NCBI GenBank assembly: GCA_963605405.1
Contig: CAVCUP010000011.1
Span: 11,270 to 75,269 of the forward strand
Reading direction: 5' to 3'
Length of the DNA stretch: 64,000 nucleotides
DNA from: a bacterium
GTDB lineage: Bacteria; Actinomycetota; Coriobacteriia; Coriobacteriales; Atopobiaceae
The notes below the pieces were generated by a model. That model worked only from the letters and a program-made list of their open reading frames with translations, was not told the origin of the DNA and ran no database searches. This document shows, piece after piece, positions 5,170 through 24,238 of this stretch. The position numbers were made by a program, and so were the translations under genes. Each line of letters opens with the position of its first letter. Position 1 is the first letter of the stretch.

Positions 5170-5266
5170 GCTTCCTCCGGTTAAGATCGAATGCGGGCGA
5201 TTGCGCTTGAATCTTTAGAATCATACGTTAAGGCGCGGTGGACTTTTTTGAACTCAGGGGGCTTTT

Positions 5267-6859
5267 TTGCCCACCTCCACGCCGCGAACACGGTCTTTAC
5301 GTAATATTGGACAGTCTGCAAAGTTCCGGTGGCCTCGAGGCCGCTCTGTTAGAAAGGGTCCCGTCTTGGCCGACCGCAGATCCCCCAGGTTCCGTTCAGA
5401 CACGCAGAACCGGCAGTCCCCAGAAGGCCAGCAGCGCGCCGCGAGCCCCAGCCACAGCCGTTCCGCCGGCGCCGAGGCCTACACAAAGAAGCGCAAGACC
5501 CGCAACCGCAAGGTCGCTGCGCGCGGCGTGGTCATCGGCGTGCTCGTGGTGCTTCTCGCCGCCGGCAGCGCGGTGGCGATGTACATGAACAGCATCAGCA
5601 CCAAGCTCACCGAGGGCCTCGACCAAGAGACCAAGAGCATGCTCTCCGAGAGCATCCAGTACGACGACCCCTTCTACATGCTGCTTCTTGGCGTCGATAA
5701 GTCCGAAGAGCGCATGAACTCGGACGAGTACGGCTCCAGCGACTCGAACTTCCGCTCCGACTCCATCATCCTGGCGCGCGTCGACCCCAAGGGCCAGCAG
5801 ATCACGCTCATCTCTCTGCACCGCGACACCATGACGGACATGTCCGACATGAACGCCGGCACGCAGAAGCTCAACGCGGCCTACTCCCTTGGCGGGCCCA
5901 GCTACATGATCAAGTGCGTCGAGAAGCTCTGCGGCGTGGACATCTCGCACTACGCCGAGGTCGACTTCGAGCAGTTCACGAGCATCGTGGACAGCATCGG
6001 CGGCGTGACCGTCGACCTGCCCATCGACATCCGCGACGACTACTCCGGCGCCGACTTCGACGCCGGCGAGCACACCCTGAACGGCGAGGAGGCCCTCGCG
6101 CTCGCCCGCAGCCGCCACGCCTACGACAACTACGGCGACGGCGACATCTACCGCGCGGCGAATCAGCGCATGCTCATCGCCGCCATCGCCAAGAAGGTCC
6201 TCACCCTCGACGTGGCCAGCATGACCAGCGCCGTCTCCACCCTGGCCGGTGGCGTGACCACCGACATCAGCCTCCCCGACATCCTCGGCCTCGCCGTGCA
6301 GTTCAAGAACATCGACTTCGACAACAACGTGTACTCAGCGATGGAGCCGACCTCGGGCTACTACACCAACAGCACCTGGTACGAAAAGATCGACGAGGCC
6401 GCATGGAACACCATGATGGAGCGCGTCCGCGAGGGTAAGGCGCCCTACGCCGAGGGCGAGAGCGACTCCACGAGCGGGCTTATCGGCACCATGTCCGGCA
6501 GCTCCGAGCTCACCACCTCCGGCGAGGGCTCCGGCACGGGCGACGTCGCGAGCGCCGATTCTTCGTCGACCGAAGCGGAGTACACCGGCACCGCGATCGT
6601 GGTCAACGTGAGCGGCGTTTCCGGCGCGGGCATCACCAAGAGCGAGGCGCTCGCCGCCGCCGGCTTCACGTCGGAGGCCACGAGCCTCTCCAACGACGCG
6701 ACCACGACGAAGGTCTATTACAACGGCTCGGCGGCCAAGGCCAAGGCCATCGGCGCCGCCAAGACGCTCGGGGTCTCTGAGTCCAACGTCGTCGAGAACA
6801 CGGGCGACTGGACGACGGATTACGACGTGGTCGTGATCCTCTGCTCCGACAAGGCCTAG
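5267..6859 (+). CDS. LytR-CpsA-Psr (LCP) family cell-wall polymer transferase with a C-terminal LytR_C domain
   Basis: It has a basic cytoplasmic tail, one TM segment (VVIGVLVVLLAAGSAVA), the LCP core (LLLGVDKSEER...RSDSIILARVDP...LISLHRDT) and a C-terminal LytR_C-like domain. The start (TTG at 5267) is uncertain. Confidence 0.85.
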   Translation: MPTSTPRTRSLRNIGQSAKFRWPRGRSVRKGPVLADRRSPRFRSDTQNRQSPEGQQRAASPSHSRSAGAEAYTKKRKTRNRKVAARGVVIGVLVVLLAAGSAVAMYMNSISTKLTEGLDQETKSMLSESIQYDDPFYMLLLGVDKSEERMNSDEYGSSDSNFRSDSIILARVDPKGQQITLISLHRDTMTDMSDMNAGTQKLNAAYSLGGPSYMIKCVEKLCGVDISHYAEVDFEQFTSIVDSIGGVTVDLPIDIRDDYSGADFDAGEHTLNGEEALALARSRHAYDNYGDGDIYRAANQRMLIAAIAKKVLTLDVASMTSAVSTLAGGVTTDISLPDILGLAVQFKNIDFDNNVYSAMEPTSGYYTNSTWYEKIDEAAWNTMMERVREGKAPYAEGESDSTSGLIGTMSGSSELTTSGEGSGTGDVASADSSSTEAEYTGTAIVVNVSGVSGAGITKSEALAAAGFTSEATSLSNDATTTKVYYNGSAAKAKAIGAAKTLGVSESNVVENTGDWTTDYDVVVILCSDKA

Positions 6860-6893
6860 GCCAGAGCGAGCGGGCATTGGCAAGAGAGGCGTT

Positions 6894-7988
6894 TTGAGTA
6901 TCCAGGACACAGACACGAAGGCCCGCGAGTGCGGGATACCGAACAAGCAATACGCCGCGGTGGCAGCAGGCTCGCTCGCCATCGCGGCGCTTTTGTGCGC
7001 GGGAATCCGAGCCGGGTACGCTCAAGCCGCCGTCGCCGAGCAGCAAGCCGCGGAGGCCGCAGCCTACGCGAGCCTCGAGGCGGAGGAAGGCGAGGCGGCC
7101 CAGCTCGAGGTCGCGCCCGAGACCGTGACGGACATGAGCGAGGCGCAAACAGCGGTCGAGGAGATTCTCGCTGCATGGGAAGACGGCAAGAAGAGCGCGG
7201 CGAATGCCAAGAGCAAGAGCGGCACGGCCAAAGGACAGTCCGCGCAATCTGCTGCCGAGGTAAACAAACCCGAGGTCGCGGTATGCGTGCACATGCTCGA
7301 CAACAGCGGCAGCTTCCAGATAAACGGCGACGACTCCATGTACTCCGCCTCGATGATCAAGCTGCTCGTGCTCGCGGAGTACCTCGACGAGGTCGATTCC
7401 GGCGAGCTCTCCCCCGACGACACGTACACGCTGAGGCGCGCTGACGTGGTGGGCGGCTCCGGAACCATGCAAAACGCCCGGCTAGGCACCGCATACACCC
7501 TCGACGATGTGGCGTACCTCATGGTGTCCGCAAGCGACAACGTGGCCACAAACGTCCTTATCGACCGCATGGGCCTCGAGAATATCCAGGAAAAGTGCTC
7601 CGAGCTCGGTCTCGAGGGGACGTCGCTCGTGCATAAATTGATGTCCACCGGCATCAACGACGGCCTCTCGAACATGATCAGCGCCAACGATGCGGCATTG
7701 ATCCTCGGCCGCATCGCCAACCGCACCCTCGCTTCAGAGGAGGCGTGTGAGCGCGCCGAGCACTACCTTCTTGCCCAAATAGACAACGAGGGTCTCGCCG
7801 AGGGACTGCCCGACTCGGTCGCCTTCGGCCACAAGACGGGCTCCCTTGACGACGCGCGTCACGACGGCGGCATCGTCTACGCAGAGAACCCCTACGTGAT
7901 AGTTGTTCTCACGCAGAACATCGACTACGACGAAGCGAACGACCTGATGGAAGAGATAAGCGCCGCCGTTTACGAGGCGCTCGGGTAG
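6894..7988 (+). CDS. Membrane-anchored serine hydrolase of the class A beta-lactamase / DD-peptidase fold
   Basis: It carries SxxK (SASMIK), SDN (SASDNVA) and KTG (HKTGSL) motifs and an N-terminal TM anchor. It starts at TTG with an AGAGAGG RBS. Confidence 0.8.
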   Translation: MSIQDTDTKARECGIPNKQYAAVAAGSLAIAALLCAGIRAGYAQAAVAEQQAAEAAAYASLEAEEGEAAQLEVAPETVTDMSEAQTAVEEILAAWEDGKKSAANAKSKSGTAKGQSAQSAAEVNKPEVAVCVHMLDNSGSFQINGDDSMYSASMIKLLVLAEYLDEVDSGELSPDDTYTLRRADVVGGSGTMQNARLGTAYTLDDVAYLMVSASDNVATNVLIDRMGLENIQEKCSELGLEGTSLVHKLMSTGINDGLSNMISANDAALILGRIANRTLASEEACERAEHYLLAQIDNEGLAEGLPDSVAFGHKTGSLDDARHDGGIVYAENPYVIVVLTQNIDYDEANDLMEEISAAVYEALG

Positions 7989-8035
7989 CGTAAAGGGACC
8001 GCCCCCTCCCCGCGTGCAATCGTGTTCTTAGGGAT

Positions 8036-8076
8036 GCGACCCCTCCGAGAATCATTCTCGAAGGGGTCGCTTTGTG
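8036..8076. terminator. Bidirectional hairpin between convergent genes
   Basis: GCGACCCCTcCGAGAAT-c-ATTCTCGaAGGGGTCGC followed by TTTGTG. It lies between the serine hydrolase (+) and ychF (-). Confidence 0.6.
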
Positions 8077-8143
8077 AAGAGATTGCCCTAGGCTGTCTGC
8101 GGCCTGCGGTCGGCGGATGCCGTCCTGCAGATGCCGCCCGGAG

Positions 8144-9220
8144 CTAAACGTTGAAGCGGAAGTGCATGACGTCGCCGTCGGCCACGACGTAGTCCTTGCC
8201 CTCGATGCGCAGCTTACCGGCGTTCTTGCAGCCAGCCTCGCCGCCGAGCTCGACGTAGTCCTCGAAGCTCGCGACCTCGGCCTTGATGAAGCCGCGCTCG
8301 AAGTCGGAGTGGATGACGCCTGCGGCCTCGGGGGCCTTCGCGCCGATGCGCACGGTCCAGGCCTTGACCTCCATCTCGCCGGCGGTGAAGTAGCTCTGCA
8401 GGCCCAGCAGGCGGTAGGCGGCCTGCGCCAGGGTCTCGAGACCGGACTTCTCCAGGCCCAGGTCGGCCAGGTACTCGGCGGCTTCCTCGGCGTCGAGCTC
8501 GGAGAGCTCCGCCTCGACCTTCGCGCAGATGGGAATGGGCGTCACGCCGTCGATAGCGGCCGGGGTCTCGCCGAGCTGATCCTCGTCGACGTTGGCCACC
8601 ATGAGAATGGGCTTCATGGTGAGGAGGAAGAGGCCCTTGGCCGCGGCGCGCTCCTCGTCGGTCATCTCCATGGTGGCGGCGCGCCTGCCGTCGTTGAGCC
8701 AGGCCTGGAGGCGCTTGGCCACGTTGAGCTTGGGCTGAAGCTCCTTATCGCGCTTGGCCTCCTTCTCGAGCTTGGGCAGCTGCTTCTCGAGCGTGCCGAG
8801 GTCGGCGAGGATGAGCTCGGTCATGATGGTATCGGCGTCGCCGGCCGGATCGACGAACTCGCCTGTGCGGCCGACCTCGCGCATGACGTTCGGGTCGCTA
8901 AAGTAGCGCACGACCTCGCAGATGGCGTCGGTCTCGCGGATGTTCGCGAGGAACTGGTTGCCGAGGCCCTCGCCCTCGTTGGCGCCCTTGACCAGGCCCG
9001 CGATGTCCACGAACTCAACGGTGGCCGGCACGATGCGGCCCGGGTGCACGATGTCGGCGAGCGCCTGCAGGCGGTCGTCGGGCACGTCGACGATGCCCAC
9101 GTTGGGGTCGATGGTCGCGAAGGGGTAGTTGGCCGCGAGGCCGCCCTTCTTGGTGAGCGCGGTAAAGAGGGTCGACTTGCCGACGTTGGGCAGGCCGACG
9201 ATTCCGATGGAGAGAGACAC
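8144..9220 (-). CDS. ychF: Redox-regulated ribosome-binding ATPase YchF
   Basis: 358 aa. It has the G1 motif [12 protein letters not shown], a TGS-like C-terminus and the ending ...[11 protein letters not shown]. Confidence 0.96.
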
Positions 9221-9234
9221 GCGGGGCTCCTAAC

Positions 9235-10560
9235 TTACTTCTTGCTGCTTTGCTTCTTGCCGTCGTCGGACATGCCCTCGAGGGCGTCCGCCGCGCGGCT
9301 CAGCTGCTTCTTGCCTTGTTCAATATACTTCTGGGCCTCGACCTTGGCCTGTGCCTTCTTTCGGCGGACCTCCTCGGCCGCCTTGTCGGGCACCACGAGC
9401 TCGCGGACGTCCATGGGCTCCATGGTAAGCGCCCCCTCATCGCAAACGGCCACACAGGCGGCGCAGCTCACGCAATACGAGGCGGCGATGGTCACGTGAC
9501 CGTTGACGTCCAGGTCGAGCGCGCGCGGCGTGCAGGCCTTCGCGCACTCGCCGCACATGGTGCAGCGGCTCATGTCGCACACGGGAACCTGCAGGTCGAC
9601 GTACTTGGCCAGGCCCTCGGCGTGCTGCAGCGCGCCCATCATGAGCTTGCGGTTCTGGGTGAGCATGCGCATGCGGTTGGTGGAGGTCTTCGCGCCGACG
9701 GCCGACTCGAGCTGGCGCTGAAGCTGGTCGAGGCGGGTGGCATGGGCCTGAATCTTGTTCGCGACGGCCTTTGCGCCGGCGAGGGCCGGGTTCGTGCGCG
9801 TGAGCAGGCGTTCCGCGGAGTGCACCGCCGAGCTCATGAACTGTGAGCGCTTGTACTCGCGCGTGAACTCGTGGGTCATCTCTGACTCGTCGGCCACGAG
9901 GCCAAGAGAGGCGCGCGCCCACTCCTCCGCCTGTCCGATGGCGTCGCAGTAGAACTCCTCGCCGGTCGTGGTCTTGCAGCGGTCACAGATGCCCACGGGC
10001 AGGTAGACGTTGATGTTGTCGTAGTCAGCGAGAAGCGAGAACCACAGGTCGCGGCTCACGGCGCCGACGCACCCCAGCACGACCTCGTTGTCCTTGGGCA
10101 GGCGCTTGAGCGCACGCGTGCAAGTGACGTAGCACTGCTCATAGGCCGAGGCCGCGCGGGCGATCTGGTCGTAGACCTGGCGCGGCATGTGACGACGCGT
10201 GCTGATGGTCTCCGTCGGGCAGGCAGCGGCGCAGAGCCCGCACTTGCGGCAACCCTCGCCTATGAGCACCGACTGGTTATGGATGGTGATGGCGTCTACC
10301 GGGCACACGTCGATGCAGCGCGAGCAGGTGGCCTCGTTGCCCGACGCGGTGCGCAGGCAGCGGTTGGAGTTCGCGTACGGCTTCTCTTTGTAGTCGGCAG
10401 GGTTAAAGACCTTTCGCTGGCTCGGATCCATCGCCAGCGAGTCGGCGATGTCGCCGAACGGGTTCGAGAGCGCCTGCCAGTCGCTCTGGATGTCGATCAA
10501 ATCGTCGAGAAAATCCCTCTTCTGAGCCACTGCCACACCTCTCCCTCTCGTATGCAGCAA
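9235..10560 (-). CDS. 4Fe-4S dicluster domain-containing protein
   Basis: It has four CxxCxxCxxxC(P) motifs: CSRCIDVCP, CRKCGLCAAACP, CTMCGECAKAC and CVSCAACVAVC. The exact start is uncertain. Confidence 0.75.
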   Translation of the reverse strand: MLHTRGRGVAVAQKRDFLDDLIDIQSDWQALSNPFGDIADSLAMDPSQRKVFNPADYKEKPYANSNRCLRTASGNEATCSRCIDVCPVDAITIHNQSVLIGEGCRKCGLCAAACPTETISTRRHMPRQVYDQIARAASAYEQCYVTCTRALKRLPKDNEVVLGCVGAVSRDLWFSLLADYDNINVYLPVGICDRCKTTTGEEFYCDAIGQAEEWARASLGLVADESEMTHEFTREYKRSQFMSSAVHSAERLLTRTNPALAGAKAVANKIQAHATRLDQLQRQLESAVGAKTSTNRMRMLTQNRKLMMGALQHAEGLAKYVDLQVPVCDMSRCTMCGECAKACTPRALDLDVNGHVTIAASYCVSCAACVAVCDEGALTMEPMDVRELVVPDKAAEEVRRKKAQAKVEAQKYIEQGKKQLSRAADALEGMSDDGKKQSSKK

Positions 10561-10682
10561 TGCTCCATTCTACCCCAGCGCCGCCAGCGGAATCATGACG
10601 TCTACCGCAAACGTGTCCTCACACGTCGAAAGCGAGAAGTAACCGCCTGAGGCAACCCCTCCCCTACCACCCGCGCAACAGC

Positions 10683-10721
10683 AAAGCGCCGCCCCTGACG
10701 GAAGTCTGGGGCGGCGCTTTT
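10683..10721 (-). terminator. Intrinsic terminator after the giant surface-protein gene
   Basis: AGCGCCGCCCC/GGGGCGGCGCT arms at 10685..10695 and 10708..10718, flanked by A/T runs on both sides. Confidence 0.65.
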
Positions 10722-10778
10722 GGGTCGTGCCGAATCGCGCGGGGTCGTACCGGGTCGTGCTAAGCCGTGCGGGACGCG

Positions 10779-13700
10779 CTATTCAATGTCCTTGTTGAAG
10801 CGGCGGATATCGATGGACTCGTTCTGGCTACCGGAGTAGCTGTCGGAGTCCTCGACCTGCTGCGAGTACCAGTTGGGCTGGTATCCCATGGAGGCCGAGG
10901 AGAAGAGCGCGCCGCGGCCATTCTGGGTGATGTTGAGCGTGCCGAAAGCGTAGTACTCAAGCCTGACGCACGAGGGGACATTCGCGAAGGTAAGAATGCT
11001 GTGCATCGCCGCGGTGGGATTTTGAATCTCAATCGCGTAAAGCAGCTGGTTCTCGATGATGTCGCCCGTCTTAAGGTTAAAGACCGTTCCGTAGCGCCAG
11101 GCGATTTGGGACTCAAACTCGCTGCCGAACTTGTTGCCGCCCCACTTGGAATTGCGCGTCTTGAGGTCGCTCACCGAGAGAACAATGTAGTCCTCGGGGT
11201 TCGAGATCTTGTTGCCAAGGCTCACGCTCGAGATGAGACGATCGGAACTCGAGCTGAGCTCCTGCGCGTACTGCTGGCGGATCGTCTTCTTGACCTTCCA
11301 GAAGAATATGGTCTTCGTCTCGTGGAAGTAGACTTTGTAGCCATAGTCGGACAGGAAGTAGTTCCAGTTGAGCGCGTTGTCGGAGTAGCGGTCCACCTCG
11401 TCGGTGGGGTTCTGGTCGCTGGCCAGGACGGTTGCCCACAGCTCGGTGGTGTCGCCGTTGTGCGACCAAAGTTCGGGGTTTACACCGCCGCCGCCAAGGA
11501 TCTTCCATTCCCTGTCTAGCAGGGTCGAGGTATCAACCGTGAGCAGCTGCTTTTTGAACTTAACGTTGGGCTGCTGCGACTTGAAGCCAACTGCCTCCAT
11601 TTCCTCGGCGATGTTCTGGACCGCGCGCGTGGTGGTGGTCCCGTCGTCGTTCGTGACCGTGATGATCGGGCGCATCGACTCGGGCAGGGCGTTAAGGCGA
11701 TCGGTCATCCTCTTGAGCTCGTTCTTCGAGAAGGAGCACTGAGGCTTCCATGAGTTGCTCAGGTCAGCAGTGTTGCCGCTGAGATAAGCGCGCCCGAAGC
11801 AGCTCTCGTCATAGGCCGCCGCAAGCGCGTACATGCCCTTTGCGTAAGAGACCGGGTTGGCCGAGTCGCTCGAGAGGAAGGTGACCGAGGTGTACTCGCT
11901 GTCGGTCGCGGCCGTCATGTACTTAGAAGGCGTGAAGTAGTGCTCCTGCACGATCTCGTCGTAGGTCTTTCCGGGGTTTGCGGCAAGGAGCTTCTGAATG
12001 TCGACGTCCTTAACCGAGATGGACCCATCGGCAGTGGTCTTGGTCTCGCCGGGGTAGTCCTCCTTCAGCTGGTCCCAATCGACCTGGCCATAGAGCACCG
12101 CGGTGATGTCGTTGGAGTAGCTCTGGAGCTCGGCCATCTGGAAGCTCATGATGCCCTGGCGCTCGCCTTCTTCGGCCTCGTAAAGCTGAACGGCCAAATC
12201 GGCACTGTAGAGCGCGTAAGCGTTGTTGTACATGATCATCAAGCTCGCGAGGAAGGCGCGCTTGGCGGCCTTGGTCTCGACATCCCAGTTGTACTTCGTG
12301 TTGACGTACTCGCTATAGATGTCGAGCATGTTCTCGGTCACGGCGTCGCCGGGAACCAAAACGTTGTGCAGCGCGGTGTACGCCCCGCCGATACCGCCCG
12401 CGAAACCCTTGTTGATGGCGTTCTTGTTGACGACCTTGAGGAAGTTCTTGAGGGCCTTGATAGCTTCCTCGGGCATGTGAGAGATCGTGGTGGCACGCGA
12501 GCACTTCGTCGTGGTCTTGTTGCCGGCGTCATCGAGCTCGTAGTAATTGCCCAGGACCTCGTCCATGCCCATGAAGATGTTGTTCGTGGTCGAGGAGCAC
12601 AAGAAGCTCTTGAGGTTCGTGTAGGTGTTTGCCTGCTGCTGCCAGTTAGTCTTGGCGCTCTGCTCGTCGAGCTTCACGTTGATGGTGTTGACCGTCGTAT
12701 CGACAGCCTCGAGCGTCTCGTTCATCTCGTCGAGCTTGTCCATCACGTCGTTGACGGTGTACTGGTTGCCATCCTGCGTAAGCTCCATGATAAAAGAGCC
12801 GACAAAACCGGCGATGGTGAAGGCCGCGGTCGCGACGTTGAAGAGGCTGGGGCCGAGAACCATCACGAGGTTGATGGCGTGGTTGATGCCGAGGCCCGTA
12901 GTCACGGCGCTGCTGAGGACCGACTTCACCCTCGAGTCCGATTTGGAGTCGCTTGAGGTCTTGCGGTAAATCAGTTGCATAGACCTTGCGTTAAGCTCGG
13001 CATCGGCAGAGACCGCCGGGGTCATAGCGACGGCCGTGACGGGAACCCCACCGACGGCGACAACGGGGGTCCAGTTGATTCCGTGGCACACGACCACGCC
13101 GGGCGTGAAGGCGACGACGCCCGAGACGGGCTCGTCGTCGGAGGCAAGGGCGACGGCATCGTTGCCGGCCGCAGACTCGTCGTCGGCCGAGAGGCTCGCG
13201 ATGCTGGCCTCGCTCGCGGCGCCGGAATCGGACTCGTCTTCGCTGACCGCCGCCGAATAGGACTCGCCGTCGAAGAGGGGCAGATCGACACCTTCCTCCG
13301 GCACGCCGAAGGCGTTGGTCGAGCCGTTGCTCATGTACACCTTGAGGTTGCTCACGTACGAGTACATGGCCTTGAGGATGTCGATCGCGGCGGACTTCTT
13401 CTCATCGTTATAGCTCACGCCCATAAGCTGCGCGTCGCTATTGAGCTGGTCGTTGCTGACGGTGAGCACCATCTGAAACACGTCGTCATCGGCGCTGCAC
13501 GGCGTGACCTCGATGTCGGCGGCAGCAGACTCGACGGACTCGGCGGACTCGTTGCCGTCCTCGTCGGTAACGATGTCGGTCGAGATGCGATAAGCCGAGA
13601 AGGTCGTGGTGTCGAGAAGATCGACGTCTCCGACCTCGGTCTCGCCCTCCGCCTCCTGGCTGGAGCGCAGGCCGGCGAGATAGGTGATCTTCGTCTCCTT

Positions 13701-15455
13701 CTCGCCCACCTCGACATTGCCGGTGTACACGAAGGCCACGGGGCTCGAATCGGCGTACGCGAAGGCCTCCTCGGCGCTCGTGTCAGACGACGCGCCCTGG
13801 GGATAGACCACGGTGTCCTGATAGGTCGACGTGATCCCCGCGTCAAAGCGCAGGCCGCCGACGAGGGCCTGGGTAAGCTCCTCGTACGCGGCGTAGCCCG
13901 TCTCGTCATTGACCTTAAAGGTGATCCAGGTGTAGCCGAGGTCTCTGTTGCACGCCTCGATGGTGATGTTGCCGCCGGAAACGAGGTGGATGCCCTTGAT
14001 AATGTCCTCGTCGGTGAACCAGCGGTACATCACGCCGTCGATATCGAACTCATCGCCCGTGGCGTACTGGGCGAAGTCGGAGTCGACAGGAACGGGCATG
14101 GCGACCTCGACGCTGTCAAGATCAACAGGGACGCTAAAGCGGTTGGTGCCGTCGAAGTAAGCGCCGTTGTCGAAGGTGTGCTTGAGCACGTCCTCGCCCA
14201 TCGGGGCGTCGGAGGTCACCTGCACGATGGAGCCGGACGGCGAGGAGTAGCTCACGCACGCGACGCCGTAAGCCTGCTCCTGGTCGGTAAAGGGCTGGTT
14301 GATGAGCTCGATGTAGCCAAGGTCGCTACTGTCCTCGACCGCCACGCCCTCGGGAATGTTGTCGACAATGAAGTGCAGCTCGTAGTGGGTGCGCTCAGCA
14401 ATGGTGGAGCCGCCCTCGCTGCCCTCGACCTTCACGGAATAGGCGCCCTCGCGCACAGTCGCGCCCTCAAGGCTGCCGGTAAGGGCGATCTTGGACTCGT
14501 CGAAGGTGCTGAACTCGCCCGCGTTCTCGGACGCGCCCTCGTAAGCGACCTCAGAGAGCACGGTGGTGTTGACGCTGCTCGCGCCAACTGGGAACGAGCG
14601 CTTGAGCTCGAGGTTCACGACGCCGGGGGCGGTATCGCTCGAGGCGTTGCAAGAGACGGACGCCTCGATAGAGAGCTTCTCGCCGCGGACGTCGGCCTCG
14701 ACGGTCTTGGTCAAGGTAAGGGGAGACGAGTCGTCCTCGTCGTCAGTCTCGTCGTCGGTCTCGGTCGCCTCGGTGCCGTTGACCTCGTCGGCCATGACCT
14801 TGAGGGCGCTCGAGGGGAGCATGTTGAGGACGAGAAGGGCCGCGAGGATGAGGCTCAGGGTCGCCTTGAAGCGCAGCTTCTTGGCGCCGTAAAGGGCCGC
14901 GGCGGCGAGAATGACGGCAATGGCGACGGCCGCGATGGTCGCCGAGTTATCACCGGTGCTGGGGATCTTGCCGGAGGTCTTGGTACCGTTGGTACCGTTG
15001 GTGCCGTTGGTACCGTTGGTGCCGTTGGTGCCGTTGGTACCGTTGGTGCCGTTGGTGCCCGCGTCGGCAGCGCCCGAGTCGCTCGCCTTCTTGGCGAGAA
15101 GGGCCGTCGTGCTCACCGACTCGCCGTCGGCGGTCTCGGCGCCCTCCGAGGTCTCGGAGCCGCCCACAAGTGTCCAGCCGTCGGGGGTCTTGAACGAGAC
15201 CTTGTGGTCCACAAGGTCTATGCCGACCTTGTTGGTGCCCGTGACGGTGATCTGAACCTGGTCGTCCGCCACGCCTTCGGTCGAGGCAGTGACGTCCAGC
15301 GTCAGGTACTCGAACGGGTCGATCTCGGTCTCGGTCTCATCTGCCAGGGCCGTGCCAGGCACAAACGCCAGCACCAGCGCAAAGATCGCCAGAAGCGACC
15401 CCAGCAGCATCCCGGTGCGCTTAGCCACCGGGCGCTCGTTGAGCATAGCTGCCAC
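10779..15455 (-). CDS. Giant (1558 aa) secreted surface protein. An N-terminal sortase-anchored module is fused in frame to a second signal peptide and a ~1330-aa orphan domain.
   Basis: Signal peptide MLLGSLLAIFALVLAFVPGTALA-DE, then an (NGT)8 repeat. A sorting signal follows: IPSTG + hydrophobic segment + KKLRFK at about aa 164-197. Then comes a second signal-peptide-like segment, ATLSLILAALLVLNMLPSSALKVMA-DE. I do not recognise any family in the rest of the protein. Confidence 0.7.
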   Translation of the reverse strand: MAAMLNERPVAKRTGMLLGSLLAIFALVLAFVPGTALADETETEIDPFEYLTLDVTASTEGVADDQVQITVTGTNKVGIDLVDHKVSFKTPDGWTLVGGSETSEGAETADGESVSTTALLAKKASDSGAADAGTNGTNGTNGTNGTNGTNGTNGTNGTKTSGKIPSTGDNSATIAAVAIAVILAAAALYGAKKLRFKATLSLILAALLVLNMLPSSALKVMADEVNGTEATETDDETDDEDDSSPLTLTKTVEADVRGEKLSIEASVSCNASSDTAPGVVNLELKRSFPVGASSVNTTVLSEVAYEGASENAGEFSTFDESKIALTGSLEGATVREGAYSVKVEGSEGGSTIAERTHYELHFIVDNIPEGVAVEDSSDLGYIELINQPFTDQEQAYGVACVSYSSPSGSIVQVTSDAPMGEDVLKHTFDNGAYFDGTNRFSVPVDLDSVEVAMPVPVDSDFAQYATGDEFDIDGVMYRWFTDEDIIKGIHLVSGGNITIEACNRDLGYTWITFKVNDETGYAAYEELTQALVGGLRFDAGITSTYQDTVVYPQGASSDTSAEEAFAYADSSPVAFVYTGNVEVGEKETKITYLAGLRSSQEAEGETEVGDVDLLDTTTFSAYRISTDIVTDEDGNESAESVESAAADIEVTPCSADDDVFQMVLTVSNDQLNSDAQLMGVSYNDEKKSAAIDILKAMYSYVSNLKVYMSNGSTNAFGVPEEGVDLPLFDGESYSAAVSEDESDSGAASEASIASLSADDESAAGNDAVALASDDEPVSGVVAFTPGVVVCHGINWTPVVAVGGVPVTAVAMTPAVSADAELNARSMQLIYRKTSSDSKSDSRVKSVLSSAVTTGLGINHAINLVMVLGPSLFNVATAAFTIAGFVGSFIMELTQDGNQYTVNDVMDKLDEMNETLEAVDTTVNTINVKLDEQSAKTNWQQQANTYTNLKSFLCSSTTNNIFMGMDEVLGNYYELDDAGNKTTTKCSRATTISHMPEEAIKALKNFLKVVNKNAINKGFAGGIGGAYTALHNVLVPGDAVTENMLDIYSEYVNTKYNWDVETKAAKRAFLASLMIMYNNAYALYSADLAVQLYEAEEGERQGIMSFQMAELQSYSNDITAVLYGQVDWDQLKEDYPGETKTTADGSISVKDVDIQKLLAANPGKTYDEIVQEHYFTPSKYMTAATDSEYTSVTFLSSDSANPVSYAKGMYALAAAYDESCFGRAYLSGNTADLSNSWKPQCSFSKNELKRMTDRLNALPESMRPIITVTNDDGTTTTRAVQNIAEEMEAVGFKSQQPNVKFKKQLLTVDTSTLLDREWKILGGGGVNPELWSHNGDTTELWATVLASDQNPTDEVDRYSDNALNWNYFLSDYGYKVYFHETKTIFFWKVKKTIRQQYAQELSSSSDRLISSVSLGNKISNPEDYIVLSVSDLKTRNSKWGGNKFGSEFESQIAWRYGTVFNLKTGDIIENQLLYAIEIQNPTAAMHSILTFANVPSCVRLEYYAFGTLNITQNGRGALFSSASMGYQPNWYSQQVEDSDSYSGSQNESIDIRRFNKDIE
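14982..15059 (-). repeat. 9-nt tandem repeat (GGT[A/G]CCGTT, 8 full copies plus a partial one) encoding (NGT)n
   Basis: Read directly from the sequence. The only variation is at the third codon position (ACC/ACG... GGTACC vs GGTGCC). Confidence 0.95.
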
Positions 15456-18149: not shown

Positions 18150-20414
18150 GTGCGGAGATTACTGACGAATTTCGGCAGCGCAATATCGCACATCGAAGAA
18201 AGACCGTTCCTTCTGCTGTGGACCTATCTCTTTCTCGCGACCCCATACGTAGCGTTCCCCGGCATCCAGAGCGGTAAAACGAACGCCGCCGCCTGCATCG
18301 CGGCGGGAATCCTCGTCGTGGGAATTATCTGGAAGCTCCATCCCGCTCCGACGAGCATCTTTCTTCCGCCAAGAATCCGAGGCAGCATCGCCATCCTCGG
18401 AGTTGCGGCGTTCCTCCCTTACGCTATTTTCGAGCTCGGCTCGATGCCCTGGATTCTTCACCCAACCACCGATACGTTGACCGGCTTTTGGAAAGAGCCC
18501 CTGGCCGGCCCCTTCCGCTTTATTGACACGGCGGTTGGCTACGTCCCACTGCTTCCGGGCAGCGCCCTGGCCGCTTACCTGTTTGCCTCTCGCCCAAAGT
18601 CCGAGCAGATATCCAGAGGATTGAGCAGGCCTTGCCCGAGACTACTTCTCGAACTCGTTTTTGCCGGCCTGCTCAAACAGCCCCTCAATGACGCCCCTGT
18701 AGGCCAGCCCCTTCTCAAGTGCCTGCATTTTGTTCTTGGCGCCTGCCTGGCCCTCGCTATCGTCGCGGCGGTCTCGAGAGAGCGCGACCGTGAAATTGAC
18801 TGCCTGCTTGCCTATGCTCTTGGCATCCTATTGTGGAATGAGGCCTCGCGCGTCGTAGGGCCTCCCCCGTTGGACCCCTTTGTCGTGGGCTCGTTAGTAG
18901 CGCTCCTTAGCTTTGGCACGACCCTCCTGATCATCGTCGTGACGCTCAGCCGACCAAAACAGCCTCGGGGCAACGAGCGGGAACTCCCCCGGAAGCCCTC
19001 CGAATATCTTTGCCAACTTGAAGGCTGCGCCAATCTGTCCGCCGCAGAACGCGGCTGCCTCAATCTGCTGGTCGACGGCAATGCGAGCTCAGAAATAGCC
19101 GCGCAGCTTGGGAAATCGCCCTCGACCGTCCGCGTCTTATTAAGCCGTTCCTACAGGAAGCTCGGCGTGTCCAACGCGGCCGAACTCATGGCCAGCCTCG
19201 AGGAGAAGCGTCTTCTCGCCGCCGGCATCACGGCCGACGCAGGACAGGCCCAATCACATGAAGCCTCCCGCTGGGGATGCTTTGACGGGGCGTTCCTTCT
19301 TCTAGCCGCGCTGCCGCTCTGGCACTATGACCTTGCCTGGGGAATCGGCCGTGAATTGTACCTGCCCCTGGGAACGGGCCTGTTTGCCGCAGGGATACCC
19401 CAACTGCTGGGAACAGAGCCGCGACAAGCGAGGTTGCCGCGGCCCATCGTCCATGTTCTCGGCGGACTGTGCGTAGCGCTCAAGGTGCTTCAAGCTGTTT
19501 GCGAAGATTCACGTGGCATAGACTTAGCCCTGGTCGCCTCCCCCTTCTTCTTTGGAGTCGCATTCACGCTTGGATCAAGCGACAAGGACCGCCCCGTTCA
19601 GTTTCGCGGAATTGATTTTCCGCCCGTTCTTCTCGCGCAAGCAATCGGCGTGCTCATCGAAGAGCTTTGGAGAGACCACGGCTATTTTTCCATCCTTGCC
19701 CCGCTTACACCCCTAGCCATCGCTTTGACGGCAAACGGCGCAGCCCTGCTATGGCGGATCGACCGCAAGGTCGCGGCCCCCTTGCTGCTTGGATGCGCGG
19801 GGCTGTTCTCATGCCTTGTCCTGCTTGGAGCGGCATCAATCTTTGAGGCCATCGCTTTGTCTTGCTGCGCCGTCAGCTTCTGCATGGCCTTCATGCTTGC
19901 TCGCACAACCGAAGTGCTCGCAACCCCGCTTCCCCATCTCGCCCCCAGCCTAGGCCTCGGAATACTGGCCGGGGACGTCCTGGTCGGCTCATTTGCGGAT
20001 CGTCTTGTGTTTAACGACACCGCGCTTCGCTATTTTGGCGGGCAATCGGGGCTATACGCCGCAGGCGGCGCAAGTCTCGGAATACTGTCCTTTGCCATGG
20101 CCCTAGCCGTAACCGCCTACTCGCTGCGCCTCTCGAACGACATGGACGCTGACGCGCTGCGAGGGCGGCTGAGTCCAGCTGGCCGAGAAACCAGGGTCTT
20201 GGCGCTCTTTACCGCCAAGGGGCTCACCGAGCAAGAGGCGATTGTGATGTCAAAAATCGCCGAGGGTTTAAGCGGACCGGAGATCTCGGAGACCATCAAC
20301 TACTCCCGAGGGACCGTGAACAACCTGCGCCTCAGCGGGTACTCGAAGCTCGATATCCATAGCAGAAAGGAACTAATCTCCTATATTTCTGCAGGTATAG
20401 GGCCTGTAAACTGA
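18150..20414 (+). CDS. Polytopic membrane protein with two LuxR-type HTH domains (tandem TM-bundle + HTH modules)
   Basis: HTH 1 is LSAAERGCLNLLVDGNASSEIAAQLGKSPSTVRVLLSRSYRKLGV (about 19035..19205). HTH 2 is LTEQEAIVMSKIAEGLSGPEISETINYSRGTVNNLRLSGYSKLDI (about 20223..20394). Each is preceded by several hydrophobic helices. The GTG start is uncertain. Confidence 0.7.
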   Translation: MRRLLTNFGSAISHIEERPFLLLWTYLFLATPYVAFPGIQSGKTNAAACIAAGILVVGIIWKLHPAPTSIFLPPRIRGSIAILGVAAFLPYAIFELGSMPWILHPTTDTLTGFWKEPLAGPFRFIDTAVGYVPLLPGSALAAYLFASRPKSEQISRGLSRPCPRLLLELVFAGLLKQPLNDAPVGQPLLKCLHFVLGACLALAIVAAVSRERDREIDCLLAYALGILLWNEASRVVGPPPLDPFVVGSLVALLSFGTTLLIIVVTLSRPKQPRGNERELPRKPSEYLCQLEGCANLSAAERGCLNLLVDGNASSEIAAQLGKSPSTVRVLLSRSYRKLGVSNAAELMASLEEKRLLAAGITADAGQAQSHEASRWGCFDGAFLLLAALPLWHYDLAWGIGRELYLPLGTGLFAAGIPQLLGTEPRQARLPRPIVHVLGGLCVALKVLQAVCEDSRGIDLALVASPFFFGVAFTLGSSDKDRPVQFRGIDFPPVLLAQAIGVLIEELWRDHGYFSILAPLTPLAIALTANGAALLWRIDRKVAAPLLLGCAGLFSCLVLLGAASIFEAIALSCCAVSFCMAFMLARTTEVLATPLPHLAPSLGLGILAGDVLVGSFADRLVFNDTALRYFGGQSGLYAAGGASLGILSFAMALAVTAYSLRLSNDMDADALRGRLSPAGRETRVLALFTAKGLTEQEAIVMSKIAEGLSGPEISETINYSRGTVNNLRLSGYSKLDIHSRKELISYISAGIGPVN

Positions 20415-20593
20415 CTCTTTCCCCTATTTCATACCCTTGTTTACGGACAGACAAAGCCCCTATTTGGCATCCTCGTCCTGACGGGCGCCCTAAACCCAAC
20501 AGACAAGATGAACAAAGGAGCGACAGATGTCCGATTCTACGACCGCGCCGCGACTCCGGCGCACATTTATCGCCGCTGGCTTGTGAGCCCAAG

Positions 20594-21256
20594 ATGAACA
20601 CGAAAGAACGCCGAACGTTGATTTTGGTCATCGTACTTGCTTTGGCATGTCTGGCCGCTGGCCTGATTCTTAACGCCTCAGCATCAACCTCAAAACAGGC
20701 ACGGGAACCTTCCGCTCCGCTCGTCTTTACCGCCGGGTCGACCGTTGAACTCAACAGTGCCTCCAACGAAGCCCGTTATATAAGAAGCGATGGCGTCGAA
20801 GCCGAGGTGGAATTCGGCTGGAGCGGCTCAATGGAGCTGACCGTCGAGAAAGCAGTGCTGTTCAAGGGCACCAGGGCCGCCGAGAAGGCAGGCGAGCTCG
20901 GCGCGGTCTCTCATGAAGACGACGACCGACTTTTGCTCGTGACGTGCCGGCTAAAGAATGTGGATGCGACGCCCACGCGCACCGATAATTCTGGTCGGGC
21001 CGCCTTTTCCGCCTCTGTTTTTTCTGTTCCGGACCTGGAGCTCAGGTACTTCTCGGCATCGGCCGAGTCAAACGATGCCCACGACTACTTCTCATTTCAG
21101 CTCGACAAGAACGAAGAAATTGAGTTCACTCTCGGGTATCCCTGGCAAAGCAGCAAGAACGGAGCCCTCGGCGAGATTCCCGAGTTCATGGCCCCGGGAA
21201 TCGACGGCGCAAAAGGTCATTACCTCATCAACCTCGCAACGACGATTGAGGAGTGA
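20594..21256 (+). CDS. N-terminally anchored extracytoplasmic protein (DUF4352-like beta-sandwich guess)
   Basis: It has a TM/signal anchor (RRTLILVIVLALACLAAGLIL) and an ...LLLVTCRLKNVD... segment like the DUF4352-type domains I remember. Its stop overlaps the next start (GTGA). Confidence 0.5.
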   Translation: MNTKERRTLILVIVLALACLAAGLILNASASTSKQAREPSAPLVFTAGSTVELNSASNEARYIRSDGVEAEVEFGWSGSMELTVEKAVLFKGTRAAEKAGELGAVSHEDDDRLLLVTCRLKNVDATPTRTDNSGRAAFSASVFSVPDLELRYFSASAESNDAHDYFSFQLDKNEEIEFTLGYPWQSSKNGALGEIPEFMAPGIDGAKGHYLINLATTIEE

Positions 21257-22113
21257 TCCCGGTGGCTTCCCTTATTCGAATGGAGCTCGGCAAGGCATTC
21301 CGAAATCCATGGTTTCTCGTCTCGTCGGCAATTTCCACCGCCCTCGCCGTTGCAAGCGCCGTCGGAAACATCGTTTATCACTGTGAGTACGGCGTTTTCG
21401 AGCTCTATACACACAAGTATGTTTCCCCCGTGCCCGACAGTTGCTTCAAGTGGTGGATATCGTTGGATTTTCTGCAGCCGACGTCGTCGCTGCTGTTCCA
21501 CCTTCTGCCATTACTGTCCGTCATCCCATACGCATGGTCATACCAGACGGAGCTGCAATGCGGCTATCTTGGGCAAGTCCTGTCACGAACTAGGCGCCGC
21601 GACTACCTGGTAGCAAAGGGCATAGCGGCTTTCTCAAGCGGCGCAATGGTGGCAGCGGCACCGTTGCTCATTAACTTCCTGCTGCTTGCAGCGTTTATAC
21701 CGGCCTATATACCCGACATCACAGAAGTGCTCTACCTGGGCGTATATCCAGATGACATCTGGTCTTGGTTCTTCTACAATGCGCCGGTCGCGTACGTCCT
21801 TCTTTTCTCGGCGCTGGCCTCGCTCATATGCGGGCTCTGGGCGCTCTTTGTCCTATCCCTGTCCTACCTTATCGAGAACCGCGTGGCCTTGCTTTTGAGC
21901 CCCTACCTCGCAAGCCTCATTCTTCAATTTCTGAGCGAGCGCATCTACCTTGTGCTCGGAATCAACGGCCCTCAGCTAGGGCTCGCCGCAAACATGCGGG
22001 CCGGCACAGAGAGCTACGCGCAGGTTTGGTGGGTTATCGCGCTCGAGTGCACCGCCCTGTTCCTCGCTTCCTTTCTTCTCACAAACAGACAGGTGAGGGG
22101 GGACGTGCTGTGA
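21253..22113 (+). CDS. ABC-2 type transporter permease
   Basis: 286 aa with about 6 hydrophobic helices. The N-terminus LIRMELGKAFRNPWF is typical of ABC-2/lantibiotic-immunity-type permeases. Both ends are GTGA start/stop overlaps. Confidence 0.7.
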   Translation: MIPVASLIRMELGKAFRNPWFLVSSAISTALAVASAVGNIVYHCEYGVFELYTHKYVSPVPDSCFKWWISLDFLQPTSSLLFHLLPLLSVIPYAWSYQTELQCGYLGQVLSRTRRRDYLVAKGIAAFSSGAMVAAAPLLINFLLLAAFIPAYIPDITEVLYLGVYPDDIWSWFFYNAPVAYVLLFSALASLICGLWALFVLSLSYLIENRVALLLSPYLASLILQFLSERIYLVLGINGPQLGLAANMRAGTESYAQVWWVIALECTALFLASFLLTNRQVRGDVL

Positions 22114-22946
22114 GGCGCTCGCCGCTACATCTCGACCTTACAGAAGGATTGCGGGAAGTCGGCAAATGGTATTTCGTCTGCGCTGCGCTCGCCGCATCGT
22201 CGGCCATTTCCTTCGCGCTCACCGCTCGGGCAAGAGGGTTCAGCCCCGATGAGGCGCCGTGTAACTTCGGCAACCTGACGGCATGCGCTTTTGCTGGGAT
22301 GGAGGCGTTCTTACCTTCACCAAGCGAGCCGTTCCAGTTTCCCGTGAGCTGGGCGCTCATGATGCTTCTAGTCACCTATATGACTCTGGGATACCCCTAT
22401 CGCGACCTCATGGGGTTTGGTCAAAAGGTGCTCATATCGAGCGCGAACCGACGCTCGTGGTGGCTAAGCAAATGCGTCTGGACCACAGTGTGCGTCCTGC
22501 TCTTTTGGGCCGTGTTCCTCGGTGTTACCGCCTTGGCCTCAATGGTCCTAGGCAGTGGCCTGGGACTCGAGATATCCCCGAGCATCGAAAAGGTCCTGCG
22601 CCTGCGTATCCCGGTCAGGTTCAATGAAATGGACTATTTGGCTTTCCTGTGCTCAATCCCGCCGATTACCATCGCACTTTGCCTGGCTCAGCTCTGCTTA
22701 TCCCTGTTTGTAACTCCCATGATCAGTTACCTCGCGATGTTTTCCCTGCTGTTCCTTTCCGCCTTCTACTATCAGGCACCGTTTTTGCTCGGCAACTACC
22801 TTATGGCGCTCAGAACACCGGGATTTGCCGGGTCAGGGTTTCACCCGGCTTGGGGGGTACTACTCGCCGTTCTGCTCTCTATGTGCTCAATCGCCATCGG
22901 CGACAAGCGTTTCTCCCACATGGATATTCTCGAAAAGGAGTCGTGA
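22110..22946 (+). CDS. Second ABC-2 type transporter permease
   Basis: GTG at 22110 overlaps the TGA at 22111..22113. The polytopic protein starts VRRSPLHLDLTEGLREVGKWYFV.... The ORF-track start at 21765 lies inside the upstream gene and is rejected. Confidence 0.65.
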   Translation: MRRSPLHLDLTEGLREVGKWYFVCAALAASSAISFALTARARGFSPDEAPCNFGNLTACAFAGMEAFLPSPSEPFQFPVSWALMMLLVTYMTLGYPYRDLMGFGQKVLISSANRRSWWLSKCVWTTVCVLLFWAVFLGVTALASMVLGSGLGLEISPSIEKVLRLRIPVRFNEMDYLAFLCSIPPITIALCLAQLCLSLFVTPMISYLAMFSLLFLSAFYYQAPFLLGNYLMALRTPGFAGSGFHPAWGVLLAVLLSMCSIAIGDKRFSHMDILEKES

Positions 22947-22947
22947 C

Positions 22948-23592
22948 ATGAGCGTCATCGTCAACGACCTGTGCAAGACCATTAAAGGCAGCGTCGTGCT
23001 CAGCAATATCGACATAGAAGCCCCTTCCGGAACCATCACCGGACTCGCCGGCGTGAACGGCTCTGGCAAGAGCATGTTGATGCGAGCGATTGCGGGCCTG
23101 ATCCGACCAACTTCAGGCCGGATTACCGTAGACGGAAAGGCCCTGGGAAAAGAGGTCGAATTTCCGTCGAGTGTCGGCCTCCTCATCGAGGGCCCGGCGT
23201 TTCTCAATGGCCGCACGGGGTTCGAGAACCTAAGGTTGCTGGCAAGCATTGCAGGGCGAGCAGGCGACGATCGCATCAGAGAGACGCTAAAGTTTGTCGG
23301 CCTCGCCCCAGACGATAGACGACGATATTCCAAGTACTCCCTTGGCATGAAGCAGCGCCTGGGACTCGCGGCAGCGATTATGGAAAGGCCGCGGCTCCTC
23401 CTGCTCGACGAGCCGACGAATGCCCTTGACTCCGCAGGGGTCGAGATGCTCAAGAGGCTCGTAAGGGGTTACCGAGACCATGGCGCGACCGTTATTCTCT
23501 CTTGTCACGACGCCACGACGCTGCGTGAACTGTCAGACCATATCTACTACCTCGCGGAAGGTCACATCGATGGTCACGAATCGCTCCATTAG
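22948..23592 (+). CDS. ABC transporter ATP-binding protein
   Basis: Start MSVIVNDLCKTIKG with AAGGAG at 22935..22940. It has Walker A GVNGSGKS, signature YSLGMKQR and Walker B LLLLDEP. Confidence 0.9.
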   Translation: MSVIVNDLCKTIKGSVVLSNIDIEAPSGTITGLAGVNGSGKSMLMRAIAGLIRPTSGRITVDGKALGKEVEFPSSVGLLIEGPAFLNGRTGFENLRLLASIAGRAGDDRIRETLKFVGLAPDDRRRYSKYSLGMKQRLGLAAAIMERPRLLLLDEPTNALDSAGVEMLKRLVRGYRDHGATVILSCHDATTLRELSDHIYYLAEGHIDGHESLH

Positions 23593-24238
23593 CCGAGAGG
23601 CAATAAGCAGAAAGGTCGCCGTGATCATCGGCGTCATCATATCCGTTGCGCTCACATCCGCGCTCGCCCTCAGAATTCAGATAGTCAATCAGTCGCAGCT
23701 CGTTATTCCCGAGCGTCATTTCTCCATGGGGGATGAAGTCGACCTTGATGGCTCCTTCATCTATGACAATCAGGAGAATACGGCCGGCTACAGCGTACGG
23801 GTCGATAAGGCCGAGGTCATGTCCGCAAGCGAGTATATAAAGCGTTATGCGAAAGGCGGCAGCACGGGCAGCGCCGCCTCTAAAGCAGAGGGCGATGTGC
23901 TTGTGCTGACGTATACGATAACAAACGCCGATAACGAAACCGGCTTCCTCGATATGGTCATGCTCATGGCAGTCGGAGAATCGAAGAACCACTTGTACAA
24001 AGTGGACGACGCGCTCTGGGAAAGAGCCGAGCCGTCCCTGGAGAATTCCAACGCCCTGGTGCTTAAGCCAAACAGCACCTACACGACTGAGCTGCCTTTT
24101 TCGTATTACGAGGGGCCGGGTCTTTTCGAGTCAACGACCGCGCAAGACAACGAGCGGCGAGCAAAAATCGAAGATGCCGGCTTTTCTCTCTACGTAAGCA
24201 ACGCTCCGCAGCGAAACATCGTGGATATTCGGCTTTGA
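23570..24238 (+). CDS. Second N-terminally anchored DUF4352-like extracytoplasmic protein
   Basis: MVTNRSISREAISRKVAVIIGVIISVALTSALA..., with VRVDKAEVMS and VLVLTYTITNADNE segments. It overlaps the ATPase 3' end by 23 nt. Confidence 0.5.
   Translation: MVTNRSISREAISRKVAVIIGVIISVALTSALALRIQIVNQSQLVIPERHFSMGDEVDLDGSFIYDNQENTAGYSVRVDKAEVMSASEYIKRYAKGGSTGSAASKAEGDVLVLTYTITNADNETGFLDMVMLMAVGESKNHLYKVDDALWERAEPSLENSNALVLKPNSTYTTELPFSYYEGPGLFESTTAQDNERRAKIEDAGFSLYVSNAPQRNIVDIRL

Follow-up and report, generated by a model that had tools for sequence, protein, structure and literature searches.

A single open reading frame (ORF) of 1558 amino acids (aa), located in a 64,000-nucleotide stretch of an Atopobiaceae genome (GenBank assembly GCA_963605405.1, contig CAVCUP010000011.1, positions 11,270 to 75,269; the whole stretch is called the window below), carries a sortase-type sorting signal close to its N-terminus and continues in frame into a second signal peptide and a large C-terminal payload. 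The best explanation of the whole, which we hold with moderate confidence, is one surface-protein precursor that undergoes double processing and whose payload is probably kept on the cell. The architecture of this region, its conservation and its modularity are established by the comparisons reported here: the N-terminal ~250-270 aa form a module that is conserved and portable, which we call an 'N-terminal sortase-anchor cassette'. By the usual account, sortases anchor proteins strictly at the C-terminus.

A sorting signal joined to a second signal peptide

The gene occupies 10779..15455 on the minus strand of the window, to which all window coordinates below refer (GTG start, with an ATG three codons downstream; stop at 10779-10781). 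Its product begins with a signal peptide (SP1), followed by a small immunoglobulin-like (Ig-like) domain, a (GTN)n linker, the pentapeptide IPSTG, a transmembrane (TM) segment of 20 aa, the basic sequence KKLRFK, a second signal-peptide-like segment (SP2) and 1336 further residues. Read from the window sequence, the junction runs (GTN)8-KTSGK-IPSTG-DNS-ATIAAVAIAVILAAAALYGA-KKLRFK-ATLSLILAALLVLNMLPSSALKVMA|DEVNGTEATETDDE, with DEVNG directly behind ATLSLILAALLVLNMLPSSALKVMA and the frame open, without a stop codon. The original prediction, a sorting signal in mid-ORF followed at once by a second signal peptide, was exact in sequence and in every coordinate. When all six-frame ORFs of 80 aa or longer from the window were scanned, the full composite pattern occurred only once, and it turned up in 8 of 20,000 shuffles of the 1558-aa protein. 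The only in-frame ATG, GTG or TTG candidates, M212 and M221, lie within the second hydrophobic segment, and none precedes it. Without a usable internal start codon, separate translation of the payload is unlikely, and this candidate was rejected.

SP1 (aa 1-38; 15342..15455) has a hydrophobic core at aa 14-32 and ends in ALA|DE, matching an N-terminal Sec signal peptide with an A-x-A site; this call, like that of SP2, is heuristic and draws on hydrophobicity and motif statistics. IPSTG (aa 164-168; 14952..14966), followed by D, has its predicted cut at T167|G168. Behind it, TM1 (ATIAAVAIAVILAAAALYGA, aa 172-191; 14883..14942) is the putative stop-transfer segment of the sorting signal, with a Kyte-Doolittle 19-mer mean of 2.28 and an AlphaFold2 (AF2) helix at 171-191. 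The predicted cytoplasmic basic loop KKLRFK (aa 192-197; 14865..14882), kept as KKLRF[KRH] among relatives, would be sorting-signal tail and SP2 n-region in one. SP2 itself (ATLSLILAALLVLNMLPSSALKVMA, aa 198-222; 14790..14864) comprises a 13-aa h-region, P214 and the c-region ALKVMA|DE. Judged by the usual features of type I signal peptidase (SPase I) substrates, that is a positive n-region, an h-region of ~7-17 aa, a helix breaker and small residues at -3 and -1, it fits throughout (KKLRFK, the stretch LSLILAALLVL, P214 and V-M-A|D, respectively; again a heuristic call). It departs from an ordinary signal peptide by its position, since it starts at aa 192 and not at the polypeptide N-terminus; likewise, the sorting signal is not at the extreme C-terminus, as 1361 aa lie beyond its basic tail.

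The sorting signal had been called 'textbook'. Its pentapeptide, hydrophobic segment and basic tail are all present, but the signal is sorting-signal-like and not canonical, because position 1 is I and not L, and its score against the curated LPXTG_anchor model TIGR01167 (15.7 bits) stays just short of the cutoff (15.9). The internal anchors of cassette relatives similarly scored slightly below the cutoffs of srtB_target, LPXTG_anchor and Rumino_NPXTG. At related Coriobacteriia loci, sorting signals of the ordinary C-terminal kind have MAATG and SAKTGD as their motifs, so a residue other than Leu at position 1 is normal for the clade. At one of these loci (L013, 5477.., plus strand), a 1159-aa beta-helix-like surface protein adjoins the cassette gene and ends in SAKTGDSIPVF...RRRNR*, which illustrates the conventional anchor type of the clade.

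Conspecific genomes resolved whether the locus holds one gene or two, as the original prediction had asked. Three metagenome-assembled genomes from NCBI (L021-L023), independent of one another, contain a GroEL identical to that of the window; in them the gene order is alike (GroES, GroEL, a single gene of 1555, 1540 or 1555 aa, a Fer4 protein and YchF) and the ORFs are 98.8-99.7% identical to that of the window. Only two substitutions fall in the junction, both conservative: T173A and V220A, the latter at SP2 position -3, which alternates between V and A, both permitted. Length differences are all in frame and confined to two low-complexity linkers. The first of these (aa 123-163; 14967..15089) includes a 9-bp tandem repeat, (GTN)x8.9, is hypervariable in homologues and holds 8 or 4 GTN copies among conspecific alleles, with 4 in L022; the repeat, mapped by Tandem Repeats Finder to 14980..15059 (aa ~133-158), also yields a run of N-G-T sequons. 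The second is the acidic linker (aa 223-244; 14724..14789), which has an AF2 predicted local distance difference test (pLDDT) score below 50 and differs by 3 aa. The exact window protein was absent from the protein collection searched. A recent fusion of adjacent genes by stop loss, the alternative offered originally, is refuted by one intact ORF in three independent conspecific assemblies, which also rule out a missing stop or an assembly error.

More distant relatives retain the same layout. A search of 5.8 billion proteins returned 18 full-length homologues (28-58% identity, 1489-1664 aa), and all 18 share the arrangement of the window ORF, each as a single ORF. In the alignment of 19 sequences, P165, T167, G168, L208, P214, A222 and E224 are invariant and the surrounding linkers cannot be aligned; this conservation of both motif and second signal peptide indicates that the feature is not accidental. 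Scanning one genome per species, we found full-length relatives at 17 loci and a weak, local match at one more (L018); the two credibly named genomes among the 17, on longer contigs, are Senegalimassilia and Cryptobacterium, many of the bin names on short contigs being unreliable. Cassette copies at these 17 loci (L001-L017) and in the homologues are followed by ~1000-1460 aa, the shortest ending at contig ends. At L017, two tandem paralogues (4699..9621 and 9866..14782; 1640 and 1638 aa) both carry LPRTG, the hairpin and SP2. A word-indexed homology search meant to enlarge the family gave 21 matches, mostly truncated, compared with 3 from an earlier N-terminal search.

A portable cassette in front of unrelated payloads

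We next describe the N-terminal region on its own. A HMMER profile of the first 226 aa, used in an exhaustive search of 1.84 billion cluster representatives, matched 203 of them; the column and architecture counts below refer to the top 148 of these, cassette proteins from beyond the core family. In 128 of them, TM1, a K/R loop and a second hydrophobic segment stand near the N-terminus; a TG motif precedes TM1 by no more than 14 aa in 110, and 600 aa or more lie downstream in 83. Most of the representatives are AT-rich and Firmicutes-like. The sorting-motif columns read [S52 T27 A18 N13 L11 I5]-P109-x-T136-G135-D113. SP2 shows A or V at -3 in 121 proteins, A at -1 in 136 and E at +2 in 93; for SP1, the counts are 133 at -3 (A or V) and 134 at -1 (A). 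The internal segment thus matches the genuine N-terminal signal peptide in its signal-peptidase signature. Median h-region lengths are 16 aa for SP2 and 17.5 for SP1, that of TM1 is 19, and the basic loop has a median of 7 aa, 5 of them K or R.

Behind the cassette stand unrelated domains: VWA, CarboxypepD_reg, TSP3, Flg_new, SpaA and SdrD_B, and further Peptidase_S8 (subtilase), Peptidase_M4 (thermolysin), LRR_5 (BspA-LRR), Lectin_C (C-type lectin), Lipase_3, phosphoesterase and others. No C-terminal anchor was found in the ten cassette proteins checked for one. NCBIfam holds no model for the cassette, and the source names of the proteins say nothing beyond 'hypothetical protein'. One thermolysin-type member, P0029, occurs on no fewer than 24 contigs, which come from different samples. 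At three of these sites (L025-L027), its flanks are arranged identically, with a 184-aa ORF upstream and a 225-aa ORF 12 nt downstream, both without a Pfam match.

Two folded elements frame the junction. The N-domain (aa 45-122; 15090..15323) is predicted to be a six-strand Ig-like beta-sandwich, AF2 placing the strands at aa 51-122 with pLDDT ~80, and contains 16 invariant residues. Its best Pfam match in the window protein is weak (NPCBM_assoc, 12.4 bits against a cutoff of 24.4), and the homologue P0017 carries PF10633. The N-domains of the Firmicutes relatives P0047, P0029 and P0043 score 27-34 bits against DUF11 (PF01345; gathering score 24.6) and also match DUF7507 and NEW3, each alignment covering just the initial ~70-75% of the profile. 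A profile of the spliced module, compared with PDB sequences, matched the initial strands of the arrestin C-domain at E 7e-5, over only the first ~44-80 positions (arrestin-side segment DKeeYsadEqIqvtvtvtNtn), arrestin being a eukaryotic protein; a single-sequence PDB match that ran through the strands reached E 0.12.

The second element, PLTLTKTVEADVRGEKLSIEASVSCNA (aa 245-271; 14643..14723), follows SP2 directly or, in the clade of the window protein, past the short acidic linker. AF2 gives two long strands (246-256 and 259-271; pLDDT 59-78, flanks below 50), and K250 and V267 are invariant. The pattern [IF][ST][VI]..T[IV].V[DG]G..[LY].[IL].A.V.Y is kept in every one of the 148 members whatever the payload, marking this element as part of the cassette and not of the payload; in many members, flexible Asp-rich repeats come directly after it. 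Since a lone two-strand hairpin is unlikely to be stable and the N-domain is the only other universally conserved folded element, we infer that the two associate. A covalent isopeptide link of CLIPPER type between N-domain and payload was considered and rejected on a sequence-level check, as no conserved Lys/Asp/Asn triad was identified: the clade of the window has STEG or STDG in place of TTDK, so that the conserved strand-1 Lys is absent, and the strands behind SP2 contain no invariant Asn or Asp.

In the payload proper (aa 272-1558; 10782..14642), AF2 places beta-rich domains at aa ~290-730, an acidic linker at ~740-805 and a domain of long helices at 806-1121, and makes the C-terminus alpha/beta plus beta-rich. 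The payload had no Pfam, NCBIfam or PDB sequence match, and Foldseek returned nothing significant, the best hits being Vip3Aa (E 0.08) and tripartite ClyA-family alpha-pore-forming toxins (E ~0.7). The helical domain is shared with the cassette protein P0028 (E 2e-15). Within it, a moderately hydrophobic stretch of ~38 aa (aa 855-892; 12780..12893) is conserved in 19 of 19 family members, with low pLDDT at 867-899; it recalls the hydrophobic head of toxins of the ClyA family or Vip3 type, at non-significant Foldseek E values of 0.08-0.8.

Apart from this gene, the window has a GC content of 0.56-0.57 at ~20000..24000, compared with ~0.62-0.70 elsewhere, and may contain acquired DNA there.

Proposed processing and competing explanations

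Motif conservation and the precedent of the streptococcal Zmp proteases lead us to infer an N-out/C-out hairpin topology and both cleavages. SP1 would open Sec export and be cut off after A38, with the Ig-like N-domain and its linker passing out of the cell. TM1 would halt transfer and leave KKLRFK in the cytoplasm, upon which the second hydrophobic segment, acting as an internal signal peptide, would restart export and send the 1336-aa payload out too. A cut by type I signal peptidase after VMA222 would take the payload off the membrane, and a sortase cut at IPST|G would attach the 129-aa N-module to peptidoglycan through T167, with a hairpin remnant of 55 aa (G168-A222) remaining in the membrane. 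Both cuts together would yield D39-T167 (129 aa) and D223-E1558 (1336 aa). We hypothesize that the payload is then docked on the N-domain: the element at aa 245-271 would bind the wall-anchored domain, holding the N-terminus of the payload near the wall and leaving its C-terminus free. Taken to its end, the cassette could be a natural split-anchor, in which an Ig-like domain is interrupted by a linker, a sortase signal, a TM hairpin and a signal peptidase site, and in which strand docking or complementation holds the payload; we regard this extension as possible but tentative.

All of the comparisons agree with the main reading proposed originally, namely one precursor with a TM hairpin, a sortase and a signal peptidase site, and a basic tail doubling as n-region: the sites are invariant down to 28% identity, SP2 carries the signature of SP1 across the 148 proteins, and for the streptococcal Zmp proteases the same model has been put forward and sortase dependence demonstrated. 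The large product may have another fate than the release proposed there, the conserved two-strand element behind SP2 suggesting retention on the anchored N-domain.

Several results weigh against double processing with retention or add little to it. The score against TIGR01167 is just below its cutoff. In P0087, P0115 and P0120, no TG motif is left but TM1 with its basic loop, SP2 and the two strands behind it are kept, so the architecture can do without sortase processing; these variants may be membrane-anchored rather than wall-anchored. No sortase gene (TLxTC-type ORF) was found in the window or the fetched flanks (L001-L018 and the contexts of P0017, P0029 and P0064), and the genome presumably encodes one. 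Direct-coupling analysis of the N-domain against the strands behind SP2 (Meff 123) gave top pairs that are gap and phylogeny artefacts. Finally, a splice test set the N-domain alone and the N-domain joined to the two strands against Pfam: adding the strands lengthened the DUF11 alignment from ~80 to ~96-102 of 114 positions, a suggestive extension, at a gain of just 0.2-1.2 bits.

The first three of these points also fit a permanent TM hairpin that neither enzyme cuts, that is, a membrane-anchored ectoprotein in which xPxTG and AxA are relics of an ancient fusion. Relics would decay, however, yet P/T/G and the -3/-1 Ala are the sole invariants of a region that is hypervariable at 28% identity, and both sites are kept across most of the 148 distant cassette proteins; moreover, the SP2 h-region is short (13 aa) and followed by a Pro-containing c-region, as is typical of cleaved signals. 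We consider an uncut hairpin improbable. Somewhat less remote, though still unlikely, is a single cut, either by sortase alone, leaving the payload on the G168-A222 hairpin, or by signal peptidase alone, leaving the N-module on TM1 unless sorting follows later. The product would be cell-bound either way, making docking unnecessary, and members without TG would use the signal-peptidase-only route; against this, both sites are equally conserved, and the Zmp precedent has S2 cleavage and sortase dependence together.

Double processing could also end in plain secretion of the large product, with the N-module as an independent small wall protein, a two-for-one polyprotein. No covalent or proven non-covalent link connects the modules, and the weak, non-significant fold hints point to secreted toxins (Vip3 and ClyA-family). 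This outcome leaves unexplained why the N-domain and the element behind SP2 co-occur before unrelated payloads, many of which are of adhesin type (VWA, LRR, SpaA, SdrD_B) and would be expected to stay cell-bound, with no C-terminal anchor in the ten proteins checked; we give it the same low standing as a single cut. As for an artefact, in which two neighbouring genes would have been merged through faulty sequencing or assembly or through a very recent stop loss, only the unusual position of the signal speaks for it, whereas four independent same-species assemblies, the window included, agree and all homologues are single ORFs, which makes the chance negligible.

Relation to known anchoring systems

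A limited library of literature on internal or N-terminal LPXTG motifs, or on internal signal peptides combined with sortase, yielded only the Zmp papers, and the broader cassette has apparently not yet been described. The closest known arrangement is the N-terminal anchor of the streptococcal and Gemella M26 metalloproteases (IgA1 protease ZmpA, ZmpB, ZmpC and ZmpD). For the streptococcal proteases, a secretion model with S2 cleavage has been proposed (PMC3518915, PMC9637739), and cell association is SrtA-dependent, being lost from srtA mutants (PMC13604702). Like these proteins (as described in PMC3518915), the window protein combines an N-terminal signal peptide, an LPXTG-type motif, a pair of hydrophobic segments and a further, predicted site for signal peptidase. 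It differs in lacking M26/HEXXH and G5 domains, as judged by Pfam, NCBIfam and a comparison of the family profile with PDB sequences, and is therefore not a member of the M26 Zmp/IgA1 protease family. Further differences concern the phyla (Coriobacteriia and Clostridia-like Firmicutes here, Streptococcus and Gemella there), the motif ([S/T/A/N/L/I]PxTGD vs LPXTG), the ~80-aa Ig-like domain before the motif and the two-strand element after SP2, neither of which we found in Zmp descriptions, and the many payload types behind the cassette as opposed to one protease family, Zmp proteins having been compared by description only.

Canonical C-terminal signals (TIGR01167/PF00746, and the clostridial SrtB type (S/P)PXTG) are likewise built of a pentapeptide, a hydrophobic segment of ~20 aa and a K/R cluster. 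They differ by position, as more than 1300 aa follow here and the basic tail continues into a second signal peptide. The Firmicutes cassette signals, SPKTGDxxN followed by a TM segment and a K-rich stretch, resemble the C. difficile SrtB substrates CD630_32460 and CD630_33920; SrtB substrates of this species have been validated and are cut between T and G (PMC4155245). In its N-domain, the cassette recalls the DUF11/CLIPPER E-set Ig-like stalks of fibrillar adhesins (PMC12617251), a beta-sandwich likeness underlined by relatives whose N-domains pass the DUF11 gathering score. Unlike those tandem stalks, the domain is present as a single copy at the extreme N-terminus, covers only profile positions ~2-80 of 114 and, in the window protein itself, stays below Pfam cutoffs and lacks the isopeptide triad; the CLIPPER Lys-Asn isopeptide bond with its catalytic Asp occurs in only some DUF11 members (PMC12617251).

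The streptococcal Zmp/IgA1 protease group is the only described exception to C-terminal anchoring that we found. Our results indicate that this 'reverse' arrangement is not peculiar to streptococci and not a mistake of annotation, but a conserved, portable N-terminal module, carried by at least ~130 diverged protein clusters of gut Coriobacteriia and Clostridia-like bacteria whose payloads range from proteases, lipases and lectins to VWA/LRR adhesins and putatively toxin-like proteins. Annotation pipelines and sortase-substrate predictors that consider the C-terminus only overlook this whole class, which provides a testable model of how the cell may keep a protein already cut away from its anchor in the wall and points to a small natural module for displaying proteins by their N-terminus on Gram-positive hosts.

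In donor-strand complementation and split tethers, such as chaperone-usher pilins and the engineered split CnaB pair SpyTag/SpyCatcher, a strand from one polypeptide completes or extends the beta-sandwich of another. The cassette would resemble these systems in its proposed logic only, a resemblance of mechanism and not of homology. If the split-anchor reading is true, it would provide a generic, N-terminus-first way of displaying large proteins, possibly with shedding on demand, and a mechanistic account of the long-puzzling N-terminal LPXTG in proteins of the pneumococcal IgA1 protease type.

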